This document shows, one piece after another, positions 30,333 through 44,142 of a stretch of DNA of 64,000 nt (position 1 is its first letter; each line of letters opens with the position of its first letter). Origin of the DNA: Sphagnum compactum (Eukaryota); contig OZ234493.1 in the NCBI GenBank assembly GCA_965153455.1, forward strand, positions 22,620,213 through 22,684,212. Direction: 5' to 3'. Under the pieces are notes generated by a model that was given only the letters and a program-made list of their open reading frames with translations, was not told the origin of the DNA and did no database searches. Made by a program: the position numbers and the translations under genes.

Positions 30333-31248
30333 CGTTATACATCCAAATTTTGTCATTCGTTGGAGGTCCGTCGACAGAAAAAAACTATTTGTTGACTTTA
30401 TCATTCATCTCGCCGACAAGGTCCGTCGTCCAATTTTTGTTTTATCAACATCAGGGTTTTCCTTTTTTGGCGAAATTTCGGCAATTGGCGAAATTTTTTC
30501 AAATTGAAGAAATATATATATATCCTTATTTAAACTGAACATAATTATTGTTTCCTTTTGTAGTCACCAAATCTGGCTAAATCATCTTATGGATGATCAC
30601 CATCTCGGCTCCATCACAAAATTATTGGAAAAGAAAAAAACCCCCACTCAACATTTGAGACCAAAAACATTTAGTTATCCAGCATCTACCAACATCACTA
30701 ATCCACTTGAAAAGTGGTTGAAGACAAAATTCTCTCGTCACTTTTGCCACTTTGGTTTCTATGACAATTGCATCCATTCAGTCAAGACAGATACAGGATG
30801 CAGGAAACCTCAAATACCGCATTGAATAAGGTGCAAGCACTACATGCATACCTCTTCCTTTGTATTCAGACACCAAGAATTCCCCGAGACATTTGATTTT
30901 TCAACCTGTTAAAATGCTGCAATCAGAGTAATTTGATTGAAATTGACTCACATCTTGTGGATAAAGAACTCTGAACCAATGTAAACTGGAAGAGGTCCAT
31001 GGTCTTCCTTCAAAGAAAAGCCACACTTATGAGGCTCCAGAACACTTTCAGTTCTTTTTCTTTGGAAGAATCGATACTACCTACAGAGCCTCTAGTGACA
31101 TCTTCAAGCAGGGTATGAAAGTGTTCCAATCAGTTATGACATCATAGGTTCTAACTCAAGCATCCAAAGTGATGCAGATTTTATCTCCATTTCTCAAGGT
31201 GGGCTCAACAGTTGACAATGATTTACAAATGCTGTGTGGCAGGAGTGA

Positions 31249-34200
31249 TCACAAGTGAATCCGAAGCATCTTAGTGACCCGCACTCCACAGTTGGGCTGG
31301 TGACAAATATCAACTGGCTTCGTGTTCTTGCAATCCAAACATGGTCCCAAATGCCCTGTACATAATGTTGTCACTTCAAGAGATTAGCCACTTTCTTTCA
31401 TCAACGATGGAAGATAACATCATTTTCTTTCAAGGGAAGGGTGGAGCAGGGGTGGGGTGAACTACAAATAAATCTTGTGTTCTTAGTGTAGCCTTCTGTA
31501 GGGAGAGCCCAAACTTTGAAGGAATCAAACATCTAACCAGAGACAAAGGTAACATATCAAAAAGACTTGCCAAAGACATGCTACCCCCTGTGAGCAATCA
31601 TGTATGCAATAGGATGGAGATGGTGAGACTTACGGCAATCAAGAATCAGATGATCTGGAGGTCTTGCATAACAGTAGCAACATAAATGGGCATGTTTCTT
31701 TTGTGCTGGCTCTGCCTCATTGATCATGATACTTTCTGTAGGAATTGTGTTAAAATGATCTTCAAGCTTTGATGAAGCTGAGAATGCAGATGAACTTGTA
31801 GCCATCACATCAGAAATAGATGTGGCAACCTGTGGAAAAAATGAGAAGCACATGTCATTTGGCAAAGCATGACCAAATCATCTGTAAGGATTAGGCAGTA
31901 CCTAAAAAATAAACATATTTTCTTGAGAATGATGTGAGATTATCCACTCAGTCACCCCCTGGTAATTACTTCATCTTCCAATAAACCAGACAGTAAAGAT
32001 GACAGACTAATCCCCATTCAGAATGATGCCTAACAGTGAAATGCCTAAAGTCAACAATCTGCATGTTGGCATTCATTAGGAGTTGACCAACCTCCATCTT
32101 GTACCATGTAACTGCTATGCTCCAATATAAGGCTGAGCTAACCAGAAACAATTAAATACATTTTTAAAGTGCAATTTTGGTTGACAATTGAAATTTCCTC
32201 GTCTGCTCAGGCTACTAATTAGTGGTGCAGGAGGCGCAAGAGCTCACATGGTTTACCACATCCCTGCGTTGAAGGTAAGTTTTGTGCATGTCGTATGCCA
32301 TAGTCCATGCCTCACTGTGAGGAGAAAACTTTACTCTGCACAGAATGAAACAATAACAGCAAATTACTATTGCAGAGTTAAGATATAGAGAGCAGAAAAA
32401 ACCTAGTTGGAAGACAATTGCTCTACAGTGCACCCAGTAGCCGTATTGACCTCTTGCAGGACAATCTTGGCCATCTCTATATTAGTACTTCATCCTGCCT
32501 AGTAAAATTAATTTGATTGGATGTCACAGGACTAAAACTCTACATTAACTACTTCAGATTCACACAACATCTCCATTTACCAGGTCAATAAGGTGTGAAG
32601 TCCAGATCACTGGAAACATGAGACTATCACTTGTGATGTATGGTCAAAACTACAGACATGGATGCCAAACATATCAGGTAGACTATGTCTGCTATTGCTG
32701 TGAGCTGAAGTTTCTGCACCAAGAATCAGACAACACCACAGCTACTCAATTCCTTCTATTTACCATTCATCAGGCCTCTCTCCAGCTTACCTTAACCAAT
32801 TTTCATGTTGACTTGACGCCTCAACAATTGCACCACGTTGGAATAACCCTATCTCTTTTGCAGTCTCTTGGGGCCCTTCTCTAACCCGATGCTCTTCTTT
32901 AGGAGACACCACCTGTCATTGTGCAAACAAAGGGATTAGTCCACCAGATCTGACTATTTTGAGTGGCTATCCAAATTATGCAGGATCTTCAAACATGTTG
33001 AAGGAAACTATTCAGGAATTTTTCCAAGAGAGAACTTCCCTTTGGGTTCAGATAGTTTGCATACCTCATACAAACATGGGAAGTGCAAAGATCCAGTTGG
33101 TACACTAGAGGTTGAGGAGACCTCCATGTGTACTGCTTCTTGAGTTCTAGTCAAAGACTCAGATGACCCTGTTGCTACTCCCAGGAAACGATCCTGACTG
33201 ACTGACAGGTCAGAAGACGTGGAACTTTTGAACGGCAGTTCCTTATCACCCATTTCCCCCTCAACCTGTTGCTTTTCTCGATCTTGCTGAAAAGCAAGAG
33301 GGTTGTATGCCTGCTTGGGGCGAGGTAGTAAAAATTGAGATACTAATTCTGGAACTGGAGTTGGGTGCTGAAGTGGAGGGTTCTTCACCAAAGGTTTATA
33401 CACAGATAAGGATCGGAATTGAGGGTCTAATGGATCACGTTCCACTGGCTTTGAGGCAGTGTCATGTGTTTTCTCCTGTTGGTCTGCAACAATTGCCTGC
33501 AGTTTTCCCAATACCACTTGAGATCTCTGAAATTCTTCGAACACAAAATTTTTCATTTGCAACACTGAATGAGTTAATGAATGACTGATTCTAAAAGGCT
33601 AGTAACTGCAATCACATCCAAGCTCTCTATAATCACAAGAGCTATTTCACCAGCAGGAATGAAGTGCTACACATATCTATGGCACCACCACTGTTGGCTT
33701 CAAAGTCTAGTTATACCACAAATTTGCGACCAAAAATATTTAATTTCATAACTTCTGCAAGAAACCAGCATCTTCAGCTCAATACATGTATGAAGCATAG
33801 CTAAACAATATCTCTGTCCATCCAGCCAGCAGTAGAACACAGATGCCACCTCAATAGCATAGCCACCATCCTGGCAGTAGCTTCTACATACCTTTGGAAA
33901 CAAATGTGGAAACAGTTCCATAGGTGAAAGCTGTGGCCTTTCTTTAACTAGTGGTGGTATGGTTTCTTCAACTTTGTTCTCTAGCTCCAGTCCCAGTTCT
34001 GATCCAACTGTGCTTGCTTTGGGTGACCATGACTCATTTCCTGGAAAGTTGCCATCTGATGATATAGAGAGAGGGCTCGGAGGTACTGCAAAATCTAATG
34101 AACTAGTTGTTAAATTGAGATTAGCAGGAGCAGATACCCTATCCTCTGAGGTAGTCTTCTGCAGTTCTGTATCAAATTTAGTACGAGGTATACCAAAGTC

Positions 34201-37200
34201 CATGCTCAAAGTTTGGGCCTTGTTTTTCAACCTCAATATTGACAAAACCTGGTTAACCTGCAGTCCAAAAATTCTGATTAGGGCTTCATACATAGGTTTG
34301 GTGTTGAGAAAAGGGGTGTACACACCTAGCCGTGCCCTTGCCTAAAAGGAGCAGTAAAGATCTCATCTCAAACAATCTGTGTTGTCCTATGGACATCCTG
34401 AATCATTTCAGTTCATTCCACCTTGGATACAAGTGGAACAATCTGAACGAATGTACATTCTCAGCAAAAGTGACTCTCTGAGAGAAAACCCACAAAATGA
34501 AAACACTTTGCATAGGAAGGATCATAAACAAAGGGGATGAATTCACCCCTTTATGTTTGAGACCTTTGTTCACAATTGCAAAATGTCTGACTTTGGAATT
34601 ACTGTTCACAAAAGATGGTCAGTAGTTTCAAAGTAACTGGATTCTACAGTTGTCCAAAAGTTGCAGATACATATTTCCTTAGCTGCACCTAGACACATGC
34701 ACTATATGCTCCAATACAATTGTCTCAAGGTTTCTGCACCATATCACTAGATCCATATATGTATAGGAGAAGTTGCTGCTCCTATATAAGTCTGATGGAG
34801 GACAAAAGACTCACATACCTGGGAGAAAGAAAGGTACAGAGACCTGCCAGACATCTGAGTGGCACCAGGGTGCACAGACTCAAGCTCTGTGCCTGTGAGT
34901 GAAATAGAAAAATCATGCAAGGTTTCAAACCCAACTGAAGGGGCATACACCAGCATAGACTGCATTGTGGGTCCCATCATCTGCATCATGGGGCTAATTG
35001 TTATGAACTTAGCTGAATGGCTCCTATTTTAACTAGCATAGCCTTCAATCAATAAGGAGAGAAGCTTGAAGTAACCAGATAAGATATACAATCTTCTCAA
35101 GAAGGTGTTTCCATGCATCAATCCCACAAATCAGAAACATCAACACTATTCTTTGGCATGCAGTCAGTTGCTCTTTGTTGACTTTGTACCTCAGCACTAC
35201 CCTCCCTGTGCCACATGGAGAGAACCACAAGTTGTCCACCCCACTACTTATAATAAACAGTCCAGATTCAGGGACAGAGATAACCCTGGATGGCACAAGC
35301 ATAAGGGCAGATGTGTAACATACCTGCTGCATCCCATATGAAGAGGATTGGTACACTCCAAATGTCTGCTGTGTTATGATGTTGTAAAGAAAAAGCATGC
35401 AGGTGCCAGGAGCTATGTGAGGAACTGCCAATAGATGCTTTGTTGACACACAGAAACGCCTCATCTGCTTGTACATTGCTAGTGTCTCGTCATTGCATCC
35501 TATCACCTGATTTCAGGCTCACAACCACCAGCCATATCCAAAATTAGACATGTGCGCACTTCAATGGTCCTACCCACCATATTTTTCTTCTATTCTTCCT
35601 CATCAAGACAAAGTTGCCTATTTACCAAACCAAGGGCAGAGATGCTGGAAGAGAAGTGACCACTTACTTGGCCAAAGAGAGAACTTGGTTTGCTGTACTC
35701 TTGGACTGGATAAGGAGAAGGTGATAAGCTTGGTGTACCATACTCAAGGGGAGGGAAACCAGAAGCTGATTCAGTCTGTGTCAGCATCCAATTGGGTTCA
35801 TTGATATTGTTGCTGTAGTAAACATGGGAATTATTGTTTTGGGGAAAAGGTGGCTGGTGAAAGTCAGGGGATGGTGGAAATTGGTAGTCGTGAATAGTGG
35901 AATAATGTGGTATTCTGTTCTCATCAGCCTTGACAGAAGAGACAGCACCATCACTAACATGCATGAAACTTCTTGTATCTACAAGGGGTGTTCCAGGTCG
36001 AGAAGAAGAGGTGAGGCTACTTGATGCAATGGAGGAATTGCCAATGCCAATTGAGGCAGGATATGTTGCATTAGAAGCTGTAGCAGAATCCATTTTGGAT
36101 AGCCCAGCAGATATTGACCCTGCTGCAAGGGTCCCTGCAGTGATAATAGATGAGTCTTCTGTACGTCTCAGGCCGTGCACTGAGGATTCTCCAATCACAA
36201 ATGGCTTTGCAGTAACCCGCAGTGTGGTCCCAAAACTTTTCATGGAAGTTCCTTTCAAGACCTCTGAACTCTCTGTCAGCTGGCCACTAGATGAATCTGA
36301 ACCACATGGAATTGTTGTAACAGGTGACTTGGAGACAGGTTCAATGGTTGAGACTTGCAACAAATTTGTGCCATGCAATTTTGGTGAGACAGCATGTGGC
36401 ACAGAGGGAGCCAATACCATTGGCAGTGTCATGGAGTTAATAATTGGAGTTGGACTTGCTCCTGGTCCTGATGCTTGTAATTCTGTTGGTTGGCAGGACA
36501 GTGTTGAAGCAGGTTGTGAATTTATGGCACATTTTACTGCTGGTGCAGGTAGTGGAGACCCAGGGCGCATACTTCCATGATTATGAGAGATTTCATCATG
36601 TTGCATTGTGGCCCCTGCCATGGCAAATAATTGACTTAGCCCAAAAGTCATTAGCAATTGACAATATGCACAAGTATGAAGAATAAAGCTCTAAATGTTC
36701 CATCCACTACTCTTATCCACAATACCTGCAACAGCAACCTGAGAATTTCCAGAACAGAAAAACGTCATTGACATCATTGTAGCCAGCAAGGCCTGAAACC
36801 CTTATACAAAACCAAGCTGACAAGAGGTAATGCATAACTCACTCTCAAATTCATGGGCAAGTAAGTATTCTTCAGCCACATTGTAGAAAATATCAGGTGG
36901 AAGTTGCTGCACACATTCAAACATCTTCATGAGAAAGAGACATTGACCAATTTTGAAGCAGTGCACAAATGAACTGAAGAAACTTGCATTCTTGGTTCAT
37001 AAGGTGAAGTGCTGCAAAAACAAAATCCAAGGAAACCTGTAAGGATGATAGTTTCAAACTTCTTGGTGTCAAGTTGACTACTCATGTCTGCCGTAGACCA
37101 TTCTGTTTAAGAGCAATGACTTTTTCTTACAGCCCATTATGGTTGTGAGACAGCTCCCTTGTTTCCTCTACAGATTGTGATCATGAAGTTTGTGCAGATT

Positions 37201-40200
37201 TTTCCCAAGCCCCTATTGAAATTCTCTTGCCCTTGTGAAAGGCATTGACAACCTTGCATTTTGCTCTAGGACATTAAGTCTTGGTCACAACTGTTGTACT
37301 ATATTCTTGCTTCTGGACACACATGGGCTCCACACCTGGAACAAGATGATAATAATGGAGACAACTTTTAAGAAAAAAGAAGCAACCTTGCAGACTAGTT
37401 CAGTAACCACCCACCTGCTTAAGAAAGTATGCACACTTCAGCTTCATCCCATGCACAGATGTATCATTGGTAAGAACTCTTGCTGTTATAGCTTCTTCCC
37501 AAGATCTGCAATATGAACTCAGCTTATTAGATCTAGTCATTTAGCCTCTAATACAGCAGTCCTTAACATGATTTGAGATCAGATTCAGCTGTGTACAAGT
37601 ACATTTGTGCTAAACCCAACCCTTCAGTCAGGACTCAAATCATGATAAGTTACAAATGAAAACTATAAAATGTAGCATATGTAGGCAAATCTCATGGTTG
37701 ACATGTGATTGACTTAGAGACCTTGAGGCAACAAGTGCTTGCGTTGGCAACAGAAGCCCATGAGAGCCAGAGGTCAAAAGAGGGAAATAGAAAATACCCC
37801 ATGGAAACTGTAGCTATGTGGTAAAAAGGAAACAGTTCCAACTGAACCACTGTGCCTCCTTGAGTGAGGAAGTCTTTTATTTCTGCATAATCTGCTTGAG
37901 GATGCACATTTTCAATGAGCATGTGCGGTGATCTGATGCTTTCCTGCAGAACGTTGTATGAGTGAGCAGTAATACCTCAGGGCAAACCCTTCTACTATGC
38001 CCAAGAAAGAGTGAAGAAGAAAATCCCCTCGTTTCACTTAAACATTAACTTGCAACCAAACCTTGTCTTTGTATTCATGCTTATACATGGCATAGGTGCT
38101 TTTTGTTGCTTTAACATGTCCCAATACACTGTGTCTCTTATACATACACAATACTGAAACTGCAACCAGAAATTGGATGCTTTACCAGACCTTAATTTTC
38201 AAAATACTACACTAAGAGACAACTGGCTGCTGAGTCTGTGAAGACCTGAGAGTGTATCACAAACCTGGAAGAGCTTGCTGTCAAGACATTTGGGTCAAAT
38301 GGCATCACAAATTTCCTCTACTAAACTCCATGCAAAACATGTGCAGCATTTCTATGCATGTCTCTGGTCTGGGGTGCACAGCTGTAGTCATGTCTGTATG
38401 AGTGTACCTGGTGCTCTGGGTCCACTAGTAAGGACCGTTCCTTCAGCACAGCCAATGGTGTGAAAACTGTTGATTTGGGGTTTGTAATAACAGAACTCCC
38501 ACCTGCAGACAGTGGCTGGTCACATATAAACTGCAGTCAGTAGGTAAGAACAGTGATACCCCTTGTCAACAGGAAATATGCAGTGTTGCAGAGGTGACTT
38601 GAGCACATATCTAATCTAAACAGGATTAGATCAATCCGGCTGGGTGCTAAATAAAAGACAACCAAAGATGTCTTCTCTGCTTCAATGAAAAGCATAGGAC
38701 TACTGCTTGTGCTGGGGTAAAAAAGGGGAGAATATCACTCACTGGAAATTCAGCCAACAGCTCAGAGGTGAGAGATGACAGCACTTGACCACTCCAGTCA
38801 CCATGTGCCATTCCAACCACACCTGAGTCAGAATCATCCTCCTGTTCTTCAGCTGAAGGGAGAGTGAAACCATCCCGAAACAAATGAACCTTCTTCCCCT
38901 TTGACTTTGATTTCTTTACCTGCCAAAAAATCATGCATGCAAATATGCCAATAAGGCAAAATCACTCATCCTACTGAAAAGAGCTGTCTCTAAGTCTCTT
39001 ACCTCCAAAGCTTTATCAACCTGATACCCTACCATGGGCATTGGTTACTGGGCCTTCATTCAAAGGGCAGACTTTAATCCCTCAATGTAAGTGTGCCTTT
39101 CACTGTAAATTTAAAAGTTTCTACATCAGTTTCTTGAACTCTTTGGAAACATCAGAATTTCACAGAAGGGTGTCTGAGTCTCTGTCCACTTCACTTCAAT
39201 CTGCCTGTTCATTCATTTCATCATTGCCCATCATATGTGTCTTTCTCACTTGATACCCACCATCTATAAAGAAAACTGGGGTTACAAGGTCATGTCATCC
39301 AAAGCTCAAGCTAAAACCACAGCCTGTCAACACCAAACATACTGCTCTTCAACAAGCTCATGCAGGAAGCACAGACCTTGGACTTTCTCTTCGGCTCCTT
39401 TGACACTGCCATAACTTCTTCATTCTCTTTCTTGTACACCCGAAGGGGCCCTTCTAGTACAACTGTTGTTGTAGTAGAGTCTTCCCCAGCTGCACTAAGC
39501 TCCATGTCCTGTCAGACATACACCTTCAATGATATAGATCTGGAGACTGACTACATCCAAGTTAACAGTTGTACAGCTGTACATCTGGTGGTAGTTGTCA
39601 CTAAAAAAAACAGTTTGCATTTAGCTGCATAGAATTTGGATAGAAACACACATAATCATATCTTTCATGAGAATAGAGAAATCTCCGTTCTCACGATGAA
39701 GAAGAAACAGCAAGGCTAACACTTCCTCAGGAAGCCACAGAAAGAACCAAACAAGGGAAGACAAAAAACGAAACAAAAAACAAAAAACACACATAATCAT
39801 GACATAAGCAAGTTTCAGCCAGAACATTGCACACAAGGTACCTCTTCAGGGCGGACATCACAAACAATTGGTACATTGGATGCAGATGCATTTGAGAGTT
39901 CAGCAGACTCAATACAATCTCTCCTTTCAAAAGACTCAGATGATGAGGAATCCAATTTTGCAATCCCTGCTCGCTCTGCAATTTCAGCTGAGGAAGGTCT
40001 AGCTTCCTTGGATTTTCGCTTTGCCCTTTTCTCCTGGATCACGAATTGAAGAGGATCCTATGAGCAAATCGATAGACAATAGAGAGATACCACAGGTTCT
40101 TGAATGCTCATGTCTTAAGGTGCACAGCACACGAGGTAGAGGAGGTGAGAACTTGAAAACTCCACTACTTCAACCTGACAAGGTGTTTATCAAAACTCCA

Positions 40201-43200
40201 AAACAAGGACTACACTTCAGGAGATCTTTGGCATACAACTCCTTGAAGCATACAAGTTGGAAAACCTATTATTTTGACATACAGACAAGCACAAGCACCA
40301 CATGCTAGGATCTCATCAAGACTTAAAACTGGAAGATTTTGCAAAAGACAGTATGGAAGATGAGAGAACCATGGCACTGCAACTTTGAAGAAAAACCTAT
40401 AGTCATGAAGTAGAAAAAATACCAATCTTTTGCTCTGTGAAGAAGGAAGATCTCTGTGTGCAGCAGGTTTTGTCTCATTCTTCAATTCCTCTACAAGCTC
40501 ATGTATAACCTACCAACCAACACAATGTGCATCATACACAATTACAAAGAAAATAACTCTTTATGAACCAACCAATCACAGAAGTTTTGCACCCTTGGCA
40601 GAACATCAAATGTACATGGGATTGCAGAGAAAACTCCACAGTCAGCACTTTCCAAGGTAACTGTTCTGTCAATTCTCAGCAAACCAAAACCAACACAGAA
40701 AGAATAATGGCAGTCATAACATTATGAACAACATTCACAAAGTGTCAGACCATCATCTTCATCATAAATGGCAATGACAAGCTTCCATGACTCCCACTTC
40801 ATCAGCTCCCAACTCAGGTGTATGTTGAACTTAATGAAAATTAGAAATAATATCAATATATATAAATAATAATATCTTGATATCTAAATAATGATATTCC
40901 GCACAAAATTTAAGGCAAACCATGATACAGACACCTGCATCCTGAGTTTCTGCATCCTTGGCAGGACATCACAGTGGGATACATCAGCCTGTCCAATCAA
41001 TACCGCACTAAATTTCAGACAGATCAGATTGACCCCCAGGTGAGAAGCCATGAGCCATACCTGCTTCCTTTCTCGAGTTTGGACTTTAATTAGCTTGCCT
41101 GGGCAATCTGCACCCACAACCAAAGCCAATTTTAGTTTGTAACATTCCAGGAAGAACTTCTACAAGTAACCACAACAACTACAGACATCTAGATGAATAC
41201 AATACTATTAAGGACCTTGATTGCTACCTTCCCCACAATGGAATACTGGTTTAGGGTTTAGGGTTTAGGGTTTGGAAGATGCACTCTAAACCAGCATTCC
41301 AACCACAGCATAGGATTAGAAGATGTATCTTGTGAGCTTAACAAATGTAAATACTACACCAGCTACTGTTCAGAAGCATGAACAGCTATAAAACCCGTAA
41401 GTAAGGTCAGCTGACCAGGAGTCACGCATGCAGCCCCATGCACCATCTTCCAGTCAGCATTCTTATCCTGGAAGTTCTTCTCAAAATCCTGCCAGCATGC
41501 CTGGAAGTGAAATGACAGAAAGCAACCCTCTGAGCAGCTGAACTCTATCCGCCTGTTGGATTCCATAATGCTTCGTGATCCATTGGGGCATTGATCAGCA
41601 TTTAAGGCTCGACATAACCCTATCTCTTCATCAACTTCTTCAAGTTCAGCTCCAGACCTATGCATCGCAAGAACCTGCAGCTCTGATTCCCTCTCCACCT
41701 GCTTATTCTCAAAAAGTTCCTGTGCCAGGTCTGGTTCAAGCTTTTCAAGCTTGCTTCCAACATCTGAATTCTGTCTACTTTTCCTAAGTTTCTCTTTAGC
41801 TTCCAAGTTCCCATTTTCAAGTTTTATCTCTTTCTGTGCCTTCTGCTCATGCTTCCACAATATATTGTCTCGCCACTGCAATCATTCCAACAATTAAGTC
41901 CAGCAATTTCTGTCCAAGAAACTCCCAGACAGGTCATCCCATGTGATACAACCCTTTACACTGATCAATGAAATAACCGAAAAAACAATCTTTGTTGTTT
42001 TTTTTTGTTCCCAAATGGACATCCTTATACAATTCAAAAGACAGTACCTGCTCATCTACTGGTGCAGGGTTTGGAACTTCAGATTTTTTGTAGAGCAGAT
42101 GTCTTGGTATGCCAACAGCTGTGTATTTGTACTTAGACCTGAATGATTCTAGTGCCTCACTCCGAGGTTGTTGATTTAGTTGATCTTCTTCTTCTGCCTT
42201 GTTGACATTCGTTGTTCCCTCACCTTCAGGTATTCCAACAATGTTCTGGTTCTGCAGAACATGATCTTTATCCGCAACTTCCCCAACAACAGAAGCAGTG
42301 ACATTTCCGGGGAATCCTTCAGCTCCAGAAGCTGGAGATTCCTTTTGTATCCTGGTCCTCAGAGCACTCCTAATGACAAGACAACAATTAGAACCACACA
42401 TTCCCAGGCATGGGAATAACTCTACAGTTTTAGAGAATTCTTCCATAACATCAAGAGGGACCTAAAGAAGACCTAAAGCTACCTTGTGGATGTTATAGTA
42501 GCTTGGGAAAGAGCAAGAAGAGGACCAGAATTTCGCTCTGTAAGCTGTTCAATTTTGATTCAGAATTTCACCTAAAACTGCAAGGATCGGTAATGGATTC
42601 TTTGGTTTAGGCTTGGTGAATTCAGAACCCCCTGAATCTTCGAAACAAACTGTCCTTGAGAGAGCAGAAGGAAGGACAATTCCCATGATCAAATCCTTTC
42701 ACAATGCTCAAAGCTCTGAGAGTGTGTGTGTGAAGGGATTCTCACCAATCCAAAGCCTTCTTGTTCAAAAACCCCCTCTTCAACGCTCCAAACACATTGT
42801 GGAACTCGGTAGCAGATTTGTACTTCCTCGAGTGTTTATGATCCTCGTAAACTTGATGGTACTCATTCTCATCAAGCTCCGAATCCGATTCCTGCCAGTC
42901 GCTCCACTCCGAGAGTGAGTCCCCGCTGCTCCCTCGATCGTCAGAGAAACCATGACCGCCTTCCCGCACCAAAGACGATTCCGCAGCCCCAGCTTTGGAG
43001 GTCCGATTCTTCGAAACCTTGGAGGTCTCCGACCTCTTGTCAGCAACCCTAGCAGCAGCAGTAGCAGCAGCAGGGGCCCGAGATCGATTCCTCGCAGGCT
43101 TGGATTTGTCACTGCCATAGCGGTCAGACGGTGCCTCTGCGCCAAGAGTATCACTGTCTCCGCTATCAGAATCCGCCTCGCGTGAATCACGCCACAATGG

Positions 43201-43569
43201 ATAGCAGTCGCGTGACTTGAAGTGCGACAAGAATCTGGCTTTCACGGATTCATGACTGCTGTGGGAAGAAGACATGACAATGAGCTCCCCACCCGACGGA
43301 TTCCCAGGCCGCGTCCATCGACTGATAGCCGTGGTATGCGACGAGCCGTCCTCCTGCGGGATACTGATGATAGCGTGCACCACGCGCGGCATGCCACCCT
43401 CTGGCGCACTTCCACTATCGGAGTCGTCGTCATGATCATCGTCGGAGTCCTCCATGCGACGTCTGTTGTTGTTGTTGTTGTTGCTAGTGCTGCTATTGCC
43501 GTTCCGCGCGTTCTGATGCTCCTTCACGCTTCTCTTTGTCTCACGCGATGCTGCTGCTGCCGCCGCCAT
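31249..43569 (-). CDS. Uncharacterised ~1727-aa multidomain protein: TTC3/DZIP3-like Cys/His domain + RRM + DCD domain + C-terminal C3HC4 RING (putative RNA-binding E3 ubiquitin ligase)
   Basis: Manual 21-exon model: 42746-43569, 42048-42351, 41416-41875, 41061-41107, 40423-40509, 39842-40033, 39377-39508, 38802-38919, 38408-38502, 37798-37943, 37415-37505, 36726-36738, 35626-36614, 35324-35506, 34819-34980, 33892-34257, 33065-33526, 32791-32912, 32248-32335, 31634-31829, 31249-31355. All GT-AG, total 5184 nt, no internal stop. Some junctions in low-complexity parts are uncertain, and a two-gene split near 37 kb is not excluded. Confidence 0.7.
41248..41273 (+). repeat. Intronic telomeric tract (TTTAGGG)~3.5
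   Basis: ggtttagggtttagggtttagggttt inside intron 3 of the large gene. Confidence 0.8.
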
Positions 43570-44142
43570 CGCGTTGCGACCCGGGGAGAAAAACTAAGGG
43601 GCCGAAAGAGGGGGAAAAAAAAACAAAAACCAGAAGAATCTCTCGCGCTACTTTCGCATCAATCAAACTGTCTCTCCAACAAAACTGTGGAGAAAGAAAG
43701 ACTTCGCATCCACTAGCGAGGAGAGAAAGCCCTTCTTCGTATCTGCATCAGAAATCCCTGCGTAAGTCTTACCGATACTGTTCATCACCTGCATAAGTTT
43801 TACATAAGTTTTACTGATCAGCGCGTTCGATCTCACTCTGATTCGTGCAATTTCCGAATGCACTTCCTTTTCGTCGTCTTCTTCTCCTTCTGGTGCTACT
43901 TACTTTTGACCAGCAAACACTCTTGCCAAGGATGAAAGCTTTGTTGTACAATAGAAAAAGGGAGAGACAGACTGAGAGGGGGGCAGAGCAACAGGGGGAA
44001 GGAGTGGCATTGTGTGTTGTTGAGCTTGAACTTGCTTTACAAGTTGCATGGCCATGATATAGATTTGATGATAATGTGTGGCATACTGTGCCTTGAACAA
44101 TTATGCCAAGTGCGCAGCTTTGGAGATGGCATTAAATGGCAG

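Follow-up and report, generated by a model that had tools for sequence, protein, structure and literature searches.

The window analysed here is a stretch of 64,000 nucleotides from the peat moss Sphagnum compactum (GenBank assembly GCA_965153455.1, contig OZ234493.1, positions 22,620,213 to 22,684,212 of the forward strand); all coordinates below count from its first letter. On its minus strand lies a gene of 18 exons (43569-31249) that would encode a protein of 1661 residues with a Cys/His-rich zinc domain, a probable RRM, a DCD domain and a probable C-terminal RING. Our subject is the zinc domain, which we read as a plant member of the TTC3/DZIP3 family (PF19179) and whose last ligand is encoded by a microexon of 47 nucleotides.

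We traced the gene with three annotated Sphagnum paralogues (P0001-P0003), which tile the window collinearly from 43401 to 31252 in tblastn, and placed its exon junctions by a homology-guided search over GT/GC..AG pairs. RNA support covers introns 1-4, and the remaining junctions come from homology alone. Once all 18 exons are joined (43569-31249), the frame runs for 1661 codons without an internal stop; an open frame of this kind exceeds chance.

The microexon and its junctions

Exon 3 (41875-41416, minus strand, 460 nucleotides) carries ligands one to seven, and RNA joints at both of its ends were present in all four RNA runs sampled. Its Cys codons start at 41614, 41590, 41536, 41524, 41497 and 41428 and its His codon at 41509; the first Cys codon (41614-41612) begins at the very base where the sequence-only reading had ended the feature. 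The PF19179 match occupies residues 112-155 of the exon 3 frame. This frame reads ...EEIGLCRALNADQCPNGSRSIMESNRRIEFSCSEGCFLSFHFQACWQDFEKNFQDKNADWKMVHGAACVTPG on the minus strand up to a GT donor, closing with ...HGAACVTP and G|GTCAGC, and its final base is 41416. Intron 3 (41415-41108, minus strand, 308 nucleotides, GT..AG) lies in phase 1 and splits the Asp codon of a TPDC motif; the sequence ahead of the next exon is ...GTGGGTGCAG, the acceptor side ending gtgggtgcag.

The microexon (41107-41061, minus strand) reads AT TGC CCA GGC AAG CTA ATT AAA GTC CAA ACT CGA GAA AGG AAG CAG and is followed by GTATGG. It finishes the Asp codon (G|AT), supplies the eighth ligand, a Cys (41105-41103), and continues PGKLIKVQTRERKQ, with the spliced product reading ...CVTP-D-CPGKLIKVQTRERKQ to give ...TPDCPGKL. 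Sequence, junction search and RNA agree on both intron 3 and the microexon. Intron 4 (41060-40510, minus strand) is placed by junction search, RNA and comparison with the paralogue, and has 551 nucleotides where the paralogue has 202. Exon 5 (40509-40423, minus strand, 87 nucleotides), placed by junction search, RNA and the Sphagnum proteins, begins VIHELVEE and contributes the final few positions of the match to PF19179 and a conserved charged stretch.

The sequence-only reading had joined an exon ending ...AACVTP-G to a 47-nucleotide exon continuing AT-TGC. Both are seen on the minus strand, and the 41416/41107 junction on which that proposal turned is present in RNA. The homology-guided search ranked 41416/41107 (score 224) and 41061/40509 (score 200) first among the candidate pairs, and we compared these with assembled contigs from four RNA runs in four studies (of 24 found), all moss or plant metatranscriptomes. 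The joint from 41107 to 41416, which skips 308 nucleotides, occurs in contigs of all four runs, its shorter side measuring 29 letters in every run, just below the 30-31-letter rule and out of a possible maximum of 47. The joints 40509/41061 (skipping 551) and 41875 to 42048 (skipping 172) likewise occur in 4/4 runs, and all three introns are GT..AG on the coding strand. Contig depth is 23-116 over the exon bins and zero over two bins of intron 3 (41141-41197 and 41312-41368), a result that, coming from contigs, proves nothing about rare isoforms. With the same limit as to rare isoforms, no joint that skips the microexon (41416 to 40509) was present in contigs of the four runs.

Related loci keep the same structure. 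Intron boundaries and phase are conserved in all seven of the loci that reach this far, of both paralogue types; two others (L003 and L004) end before the microexon junction and were left out of this count. L004 has exons 1, 2 and 3 of the window gene joined without introns 1 and 2 and ends exactly at the exon 3 donor, and the loss of both introns marks it as a transcript fragment within a metagenome collection. At the four window-type genomic loci (L005-L008), whose identity to the window is about 96.5%, 47/47 microexon positions agree in every case, and 278-285 of 304-308 in intron 3. Between the window and the paralogue the microexon is identical at 42/47 positions and intron 3 at 218/339. 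Annotated Sphagnum proteins read ...ICMTPDCPGKLIKVQTRESKQVIHELVEE and ...CMTPDCPGKLIKVQTRESKQVIHELVEE across these junctions. We conclude that the gene is expressed and spliced, and take the microexon to be constitutively included.

Splicing of intron 3 decides whether the domain is complete, as without it the frame stops 16 codons into the intron. A substantial share of transcripts might retain intron 3 and be truncated or degraded, the complete domain then being made conditionally. Two products of window-type transcripts, P0015 (280 residues) and P0019 (303 residues), have intron 2 removed and read through intron 3 to this stop (...CVTPGQLTLL...), lacking the eighth ligand, and 13 further listed “hypothetical proteins” of the same cluster (67-168 residues) end in intron 3, possibly as genomic open reading frame calls. 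Against this, the spliced joint has a depth of 31-65 in the four runs beside two intron 3 bins at zero, isoform shares are not measurable from contigs, and total-RNA libraries often contain pre-mRNA from which some introns are still to be removed. We regard regulated retention as very improbable, and keep to constitutive inclusion of the microexon.

Both introns around the microexon hold further sequence features. Three tandem CCCTAAA units, a plant telomere-type repeat, lie at about 41248-41270 in intron 3 on the minus strand, and RNA contigs that touch this area continue into unlike sequence. Within intron 4, the segment 40685-40798 has an RNA-contig depth of 220-1650, against 23-138 on the adjoining exons, and the contigs there show numerous loose ends and unusual joints. 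It has no Rfam match and no second copy within the window; its probable origin is a repeat, or a piece of a transposon, that is transcribed elsewhere. An Rfam scan of 31000-44000 gave nothing at E ≤ 0.1.

The zinc domain and its partner domains

The spliced domain has the spacing C-x7-C-x17-C-x3-C-x4-H-x3-CW-x21-C-x-TPDC-x-G-x-L, and both the core and the upstream C-x7-C are exactly as the sequence-only reading had given them. Its eight ligands run C, C, C, C, H, C, C, C, seven from exon 3 and the eighth from the microexon. None of the eight varies across four lineages (the window type, the Sphagnum paralogue, Mesotaenium and Klebsormidium), nor do W-K, G-A and T-P-D..G.

Identity was judged against Pfam PF19179 (TTC3_DZIP3_dom; model length 116, curated cut-off 26.9 bits). 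Window exon 3 by itself matches profile positions 54-95 (19.3 bits, E 9.8e-4), and PF19179 is the sole Pfam family that it matches at E ≤ 0.01. The whole Sphagnum proteins P0001-P0003 score 33.2-33.5 bits over profile 54-113, and the domain of P0003 taken alone scores 39.2 bits (E 6.6e-10) over the same span. Mesotaenium P0005 also passes, with 27.2 bits for the whole protein and 33.0 bits for the domain (profile 54-110). In Klebsormidium, P0023 scores 21.5 bits (profile 30-113) and the fragment P0008 26.1 bits (50-113). The identity that the sequence-only reading had proposed for this domain is thus supported, by the match in window exon 3 and by scores above the cut-off in the Sphagnum paralogues and Mesotaenium. 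The Cys/His spacing with TPDC-x-G is what the sequence-only reading had given as the signature of the animal TTC3 and DZIP3 domains, a likeness to which the HMM (hidden Markov model) match lends indirect support.

In the paralogue it is the microexon-encoded part that lifts the domain above the cut-off. Cut after ...CMTP, the P0003 domain scores 21.8 bits (profile 54-95), and with the 16 residues equivalent to the microexon it scores 37.9 bits (54-108); this bears out, for the paralogue, the earlier proposal that only the 47-nucleotide exon completes the domain. Since window and paralogue differ at just one of these 16 residues, the spliced window domain would be expected to pass the cut-off as well.

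The domain could instead be a divergent form of an ordinary zinc module (PHD, RING variant, IBR, ZZ or PCFS4-type) that has been filed under PF19179. An eight-ligand count is typical of cross-brace modules, and the next-best Pfam models for the P0003 domain alone are zf_PCFS4 (E 0.0094, 16 bits) and, more distantly, TRASH_ZMYM4 (E 0.069). Against this, no PHD, RING, IBR or ZZ model appears for the domain alone even at E ≤ 10 among 24,736 Pfam models, so that the better match to a PHD, RING-variant or IBR domain that might have displaced PF19179 is absent from Pfam. Sequence and profile searches of the PDB found no relative of the zinc domain, their sole profile match being RNase A at E 1.4, by chance. 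We give an ordinary module very little credence, and keep to a TTC3/DZIP3-type domain.

In the ESM Atlas, the clusters nearest to residues 425-545 of P0003 are of the Headcase N-terminal domain (PF15353), at 0.85 (176/256 features) and 0.77. HECA_N is absent from the Pfam matches of the P0003 domain, leaving this lead without Pfam backing; the resemblance could point to a broader superfamily of Cys-rich domains. The best ESM Atlas score of P0008 was 0.76, to unnamed prokaryotic clusters, and we judged it meaningless.

Downstream of the zinc domain, tblastn and the family profile place an RRM-like domain on two exons (37943-37798 and 37505-37408; 37943-37408 overall, minus strand). At E ≤ 1 the family profile has 31 matches in the PDB, 31/31 of them RRM proteins aligned on one region; the top one is PTB (E 6e-5). 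RRM_1 (PF00076) scores 17.5 and 18.3 bits, under its cut-off of 20.7, and single window exons have no RRM match. The DCD domain, likewise on two exons (35506-35324 and 34980-34819; 35506-34819 overall, minus strand), is assigned by a match to PF10539 (Dev_Cell_Death): a window exon, submitted as 35509-35327, scores 30.8 bits, over the 27.8 cut-off, on profile 4-60 of 126, and the paralogue scores 33.4 bits on profile 2-84, the second half of the model being weakly covered.

The last two exons (31829-31634 and 31355-31249; 31829-31249 overall, minus strand) encode a C3HC4 RING-like motif, C-x2-C-x11-C-x-H-x3-C-x2-C-x8-C-x4-C, which is split by an intron and ends in C-x4-C where C-x2-C is usual. 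The C-terminus of the paralogue scores 23.3 bits (E 5.5e-5) on zf-C3HC4_3 (PF13920), under the cut-off of 27. Against the PDB, the nine weak matches of the RING region (E 0.15-0.65) are all RING E3 ligases, of the IAP, MGRN1 and MEX3C types. From these patterns and scores an RRM and a RING are probably present in the protein, the RING being probably of the IAP type. One isoform of the S. magellanicum paralogue (P0035) diverges after ...HLILDCR and does not have the second half of the RING motif; an alternative 3' end might explain this, as might a faulty gene model.

Just upstream of the gene, an uninterrupted frame of 1302 codons runs along the minus strand (49088-45180). By eye it resembles the splicing factor SF3B1, and this putative neighbour is apparently intronless.

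Relatives and the standing of the reading

The closest named relatives of the window gene are the Sphagnum paralogues, S. magellanicum CY35_02G016300 (P0001 and isoforms) and the S. jensenii “DCD domain-containing protein” (P0002, P0003). They share with it the exon order along the whole gene, the microexon, the intron phase and the four domains, and differ from it in sequence (64-67% identity in exon 3) and in the length of intron 4 given above. Because window-type and paralogue-type loci occur in the same metagenome contig sets, the two are probably two genes of one genome. Algal orthologues are found in Klebsormidium nitens (KFL_005370080, GAQ89571.1, P0023, in the cluster of P0008) and Mesotaenium endlicherianum (ME000058S08624, P0005). 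These have the zinc domain, RRM and DCD in the same order with the eight ligands invariant; overall identity is only 24%, and neither model has a C-terminal RING, though the models may be incomplete.

Wider searches added little to this set. At longer lengths, a word-index search with exon 3 as query recovered three Sphagnum proteins among 187 candidates, and one with P0003 region 425-545 recovered the same three among 44. A search with alignment A1, again at longer lengths, gave four relatives among 7,999 scored, adding Mesotaenium. These word-index searches reached no animal, angiosperm, fern, liverwort or other moss protein, which is weak evidence of absence. A phmmer search over 1.84 billion representatives gave five matches at E ≤ 0.001 from a library that omits some members, the Sphagnum paralogue itself being missing from the matches; two of the five (P0006 and P0007) were set aside as repetitive proteins of unrelated families. 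Among viral contigs, 78 pattern matches yielded none that was confirmed. Together these results suggest loss from other land plants, as far as word-limited searches and an incomplete representative library can indicate it. From its presence in streptophyte algae and mosses, it is a reasonable inference that the domain is older than animals, as the sequence-only reading had also proposed.

We read the Cys/His core as a genuine TTC3/DZIP3-type domain (PF19179) in a large, expressed moss gene whose product is likely an RNA-coupled ubiquitin ligase, and put the probability of this reading at about 0.75. Several results weigh against it. Window exon 3 alone lies under the PF19179 cut-off (19.3 versus 26.9 bits), a score that covers the exon 3 part of the domain only, and both Klebsormidium scores lie under it too. 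The match is restricted to profile 54-113 of 116: it leaves the N-terminal half of the model uncovered, and the alignment starts at 54 in the window, Sphagnum and Mesotaenium alike. AlphaFold2 on alignments of four and six rows gave unusable models (mean predicted local distance difference test, pLDDT, 34.8 and 41.9), and the literature search found no experiment on any member. The RING and the RRM both score under their Pfam cut-offs, and the absence of a RING from the algal models means that ligase activity may be moss-specific or absent. In this analysis the Pfam HMM is the sole bridge to animal TTC3 and DZIP3.

A rival reading is a streptophyte-specific zinc finger that resembles the animal domain through convergent Cys/His spacing and a short TPDC-x-G, and not through common descent. 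About half of the PF19179 model is matched, the window exon and Klebsormidium fall short of the cut-off, the comparison with animals passes through the Pfam HMM, and the nearest ESM Atlas cluster belongs to another Cys-rich family, the Headcase N-terminal domain. Convergence on ligand spacing sits poorly, however, with an E of 6.6e-10 for the domain alone and with Sphagnum and Mesotaenium scores that pass the curated cut-off. Residues that are not ligands (W-K, G-A, T-P-D and G) are invariant as well, and no other model among the 24,736 of Pfam comes close. A convergent finger thus seems to us distinctly unlikely, and common descent with the TTC3/DZIP3 domain is the reading that we carry forward.

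A candidate RNA-coupled ligase and its known counterparts

The order of parts suggests how such a protein could work. A disordered N-terminus would be followed by the zinc domain, the RRM, the DCD domain (of the EVE/YTH-like PUA fold) and the C-terminal IAP-type RING. The eight ligands would suffice for two zinc ions, with the microexon supplying the eighth ligand, the conserved PDC-x-G turn and the strand that follows. We suggest that the zinc domain has a structural role, holding two zinc ions and docking RNA or a protein partner, that RRM and DCD bind RNA, possibly modified RNA, and that the RING recruits an E2 enzyme. The whole would then act as an RNA-coupled ubiquitin ligase, by analogy with the RNA-binding ligase DZIP3. 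The protein is most likely an RNA-linked E3 ligase, a function deduced from its parts.

The zinc domain, RRM and DCD appear to form a core common to the moss and the Klebsormidium and Mesotaenium proteins, to which a RING is joined in the moss proteins only. A more far-reaching possibility is that this core is an ancient streptophyte reader of RNA, perhaps of modified RNA, that became coupled to a RING in mosses. The zinc domains of this core and of DZIP3 would then go back to a common ancestor, and PF19179 would have belonged to RNA-coupled ubiquitination in early eukaryotes, before the split of plants and animals, and been lost from most land plants. We consider this extended history unlikely as it stands and offer it tentatively; were it true, Sphagnum would provide a non-animal system in which to ask what PF19179 binds.

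PF19179 occurs in two human ligases. The clear series of orthologues that runs from streptophyte algae to peat mosses, in which the domain is joined to RNA-binding modules, shows that PF19179 is not animal-specific; it also suggests a testable tie to RNA-coupled ubiquitination. A literature search found no paper, by title and abstract, on the function of PF19179 (IPR043866) or on the domain shared by TTC3 and DZIP3, and none on a ligase architecture of DCD with RING or DCD with RRM. The novelty is nevertheless modest, because the precomputed, automatic annotation of the Sphagnum paralogues already labels them with PF19179, together with PF10539. The gene would also be a clean case of a microexon on which an essential metal ligand depends. 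When such an exon is overlooked in gene calling, the outcome is a truncated “hypothetical protein,” and at least 15 database entries run into intron 3.

The moss protein and the animal TTC3 and DZIP3/hRUL138 have the Cys/His core of PF19179 in common (profile 54-113, including TPDC-x-G), and all are long proteins with a RING-type finger at the end. The moss protein differs in carrying RRM and DCD between the zinc domain and the RING, and a Pfam scan of the moss and algal relatives found no TPR or HEPN region, unlike animal TTC3/DZIP3. The RING of TTC3 is of the RING-H2 type. That of hRUL138 is named RING-H2 in the reference list of PMC4645096, in contrast to the C3HC4 IAP type of the moss RING. 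DZIP3 itself is described as RNA-binding in the same source (PMC4645096), a property for which the moss protein would have its RRM and DCD.

With the angiosperm DCD/NRP proteins (Tenhaken subgroups I-IV) the moss protein shares the PF10539 DCD domain. In the four subgroups of Tenhaken 2005 the DCD either stands alone or is combined with ParB or Kelch repeats, and the words RING and RRM are absent from that paper (PMC1182354); the moss architecture lies outside all four subgroups. A 2020 survey of EVE and DCD domains, in which the RRM goes unmentioned, predicts that the DCD is EVE/YTH-like and binds modified bases (PMC7641849).

A functional likeness extends to the RNA-binding RING ligases MEX3C, MKRN1 and Not4, which combine RNA-binding modules with a C-terminal RING and are not relatives of the zinc domain. 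MEX3 binds RNA through KH domains and MKRN through CCCH fingers, neither type being shared with the moss protein. The RING of MEX3C is among the weak PDB matches of the moss RING region.

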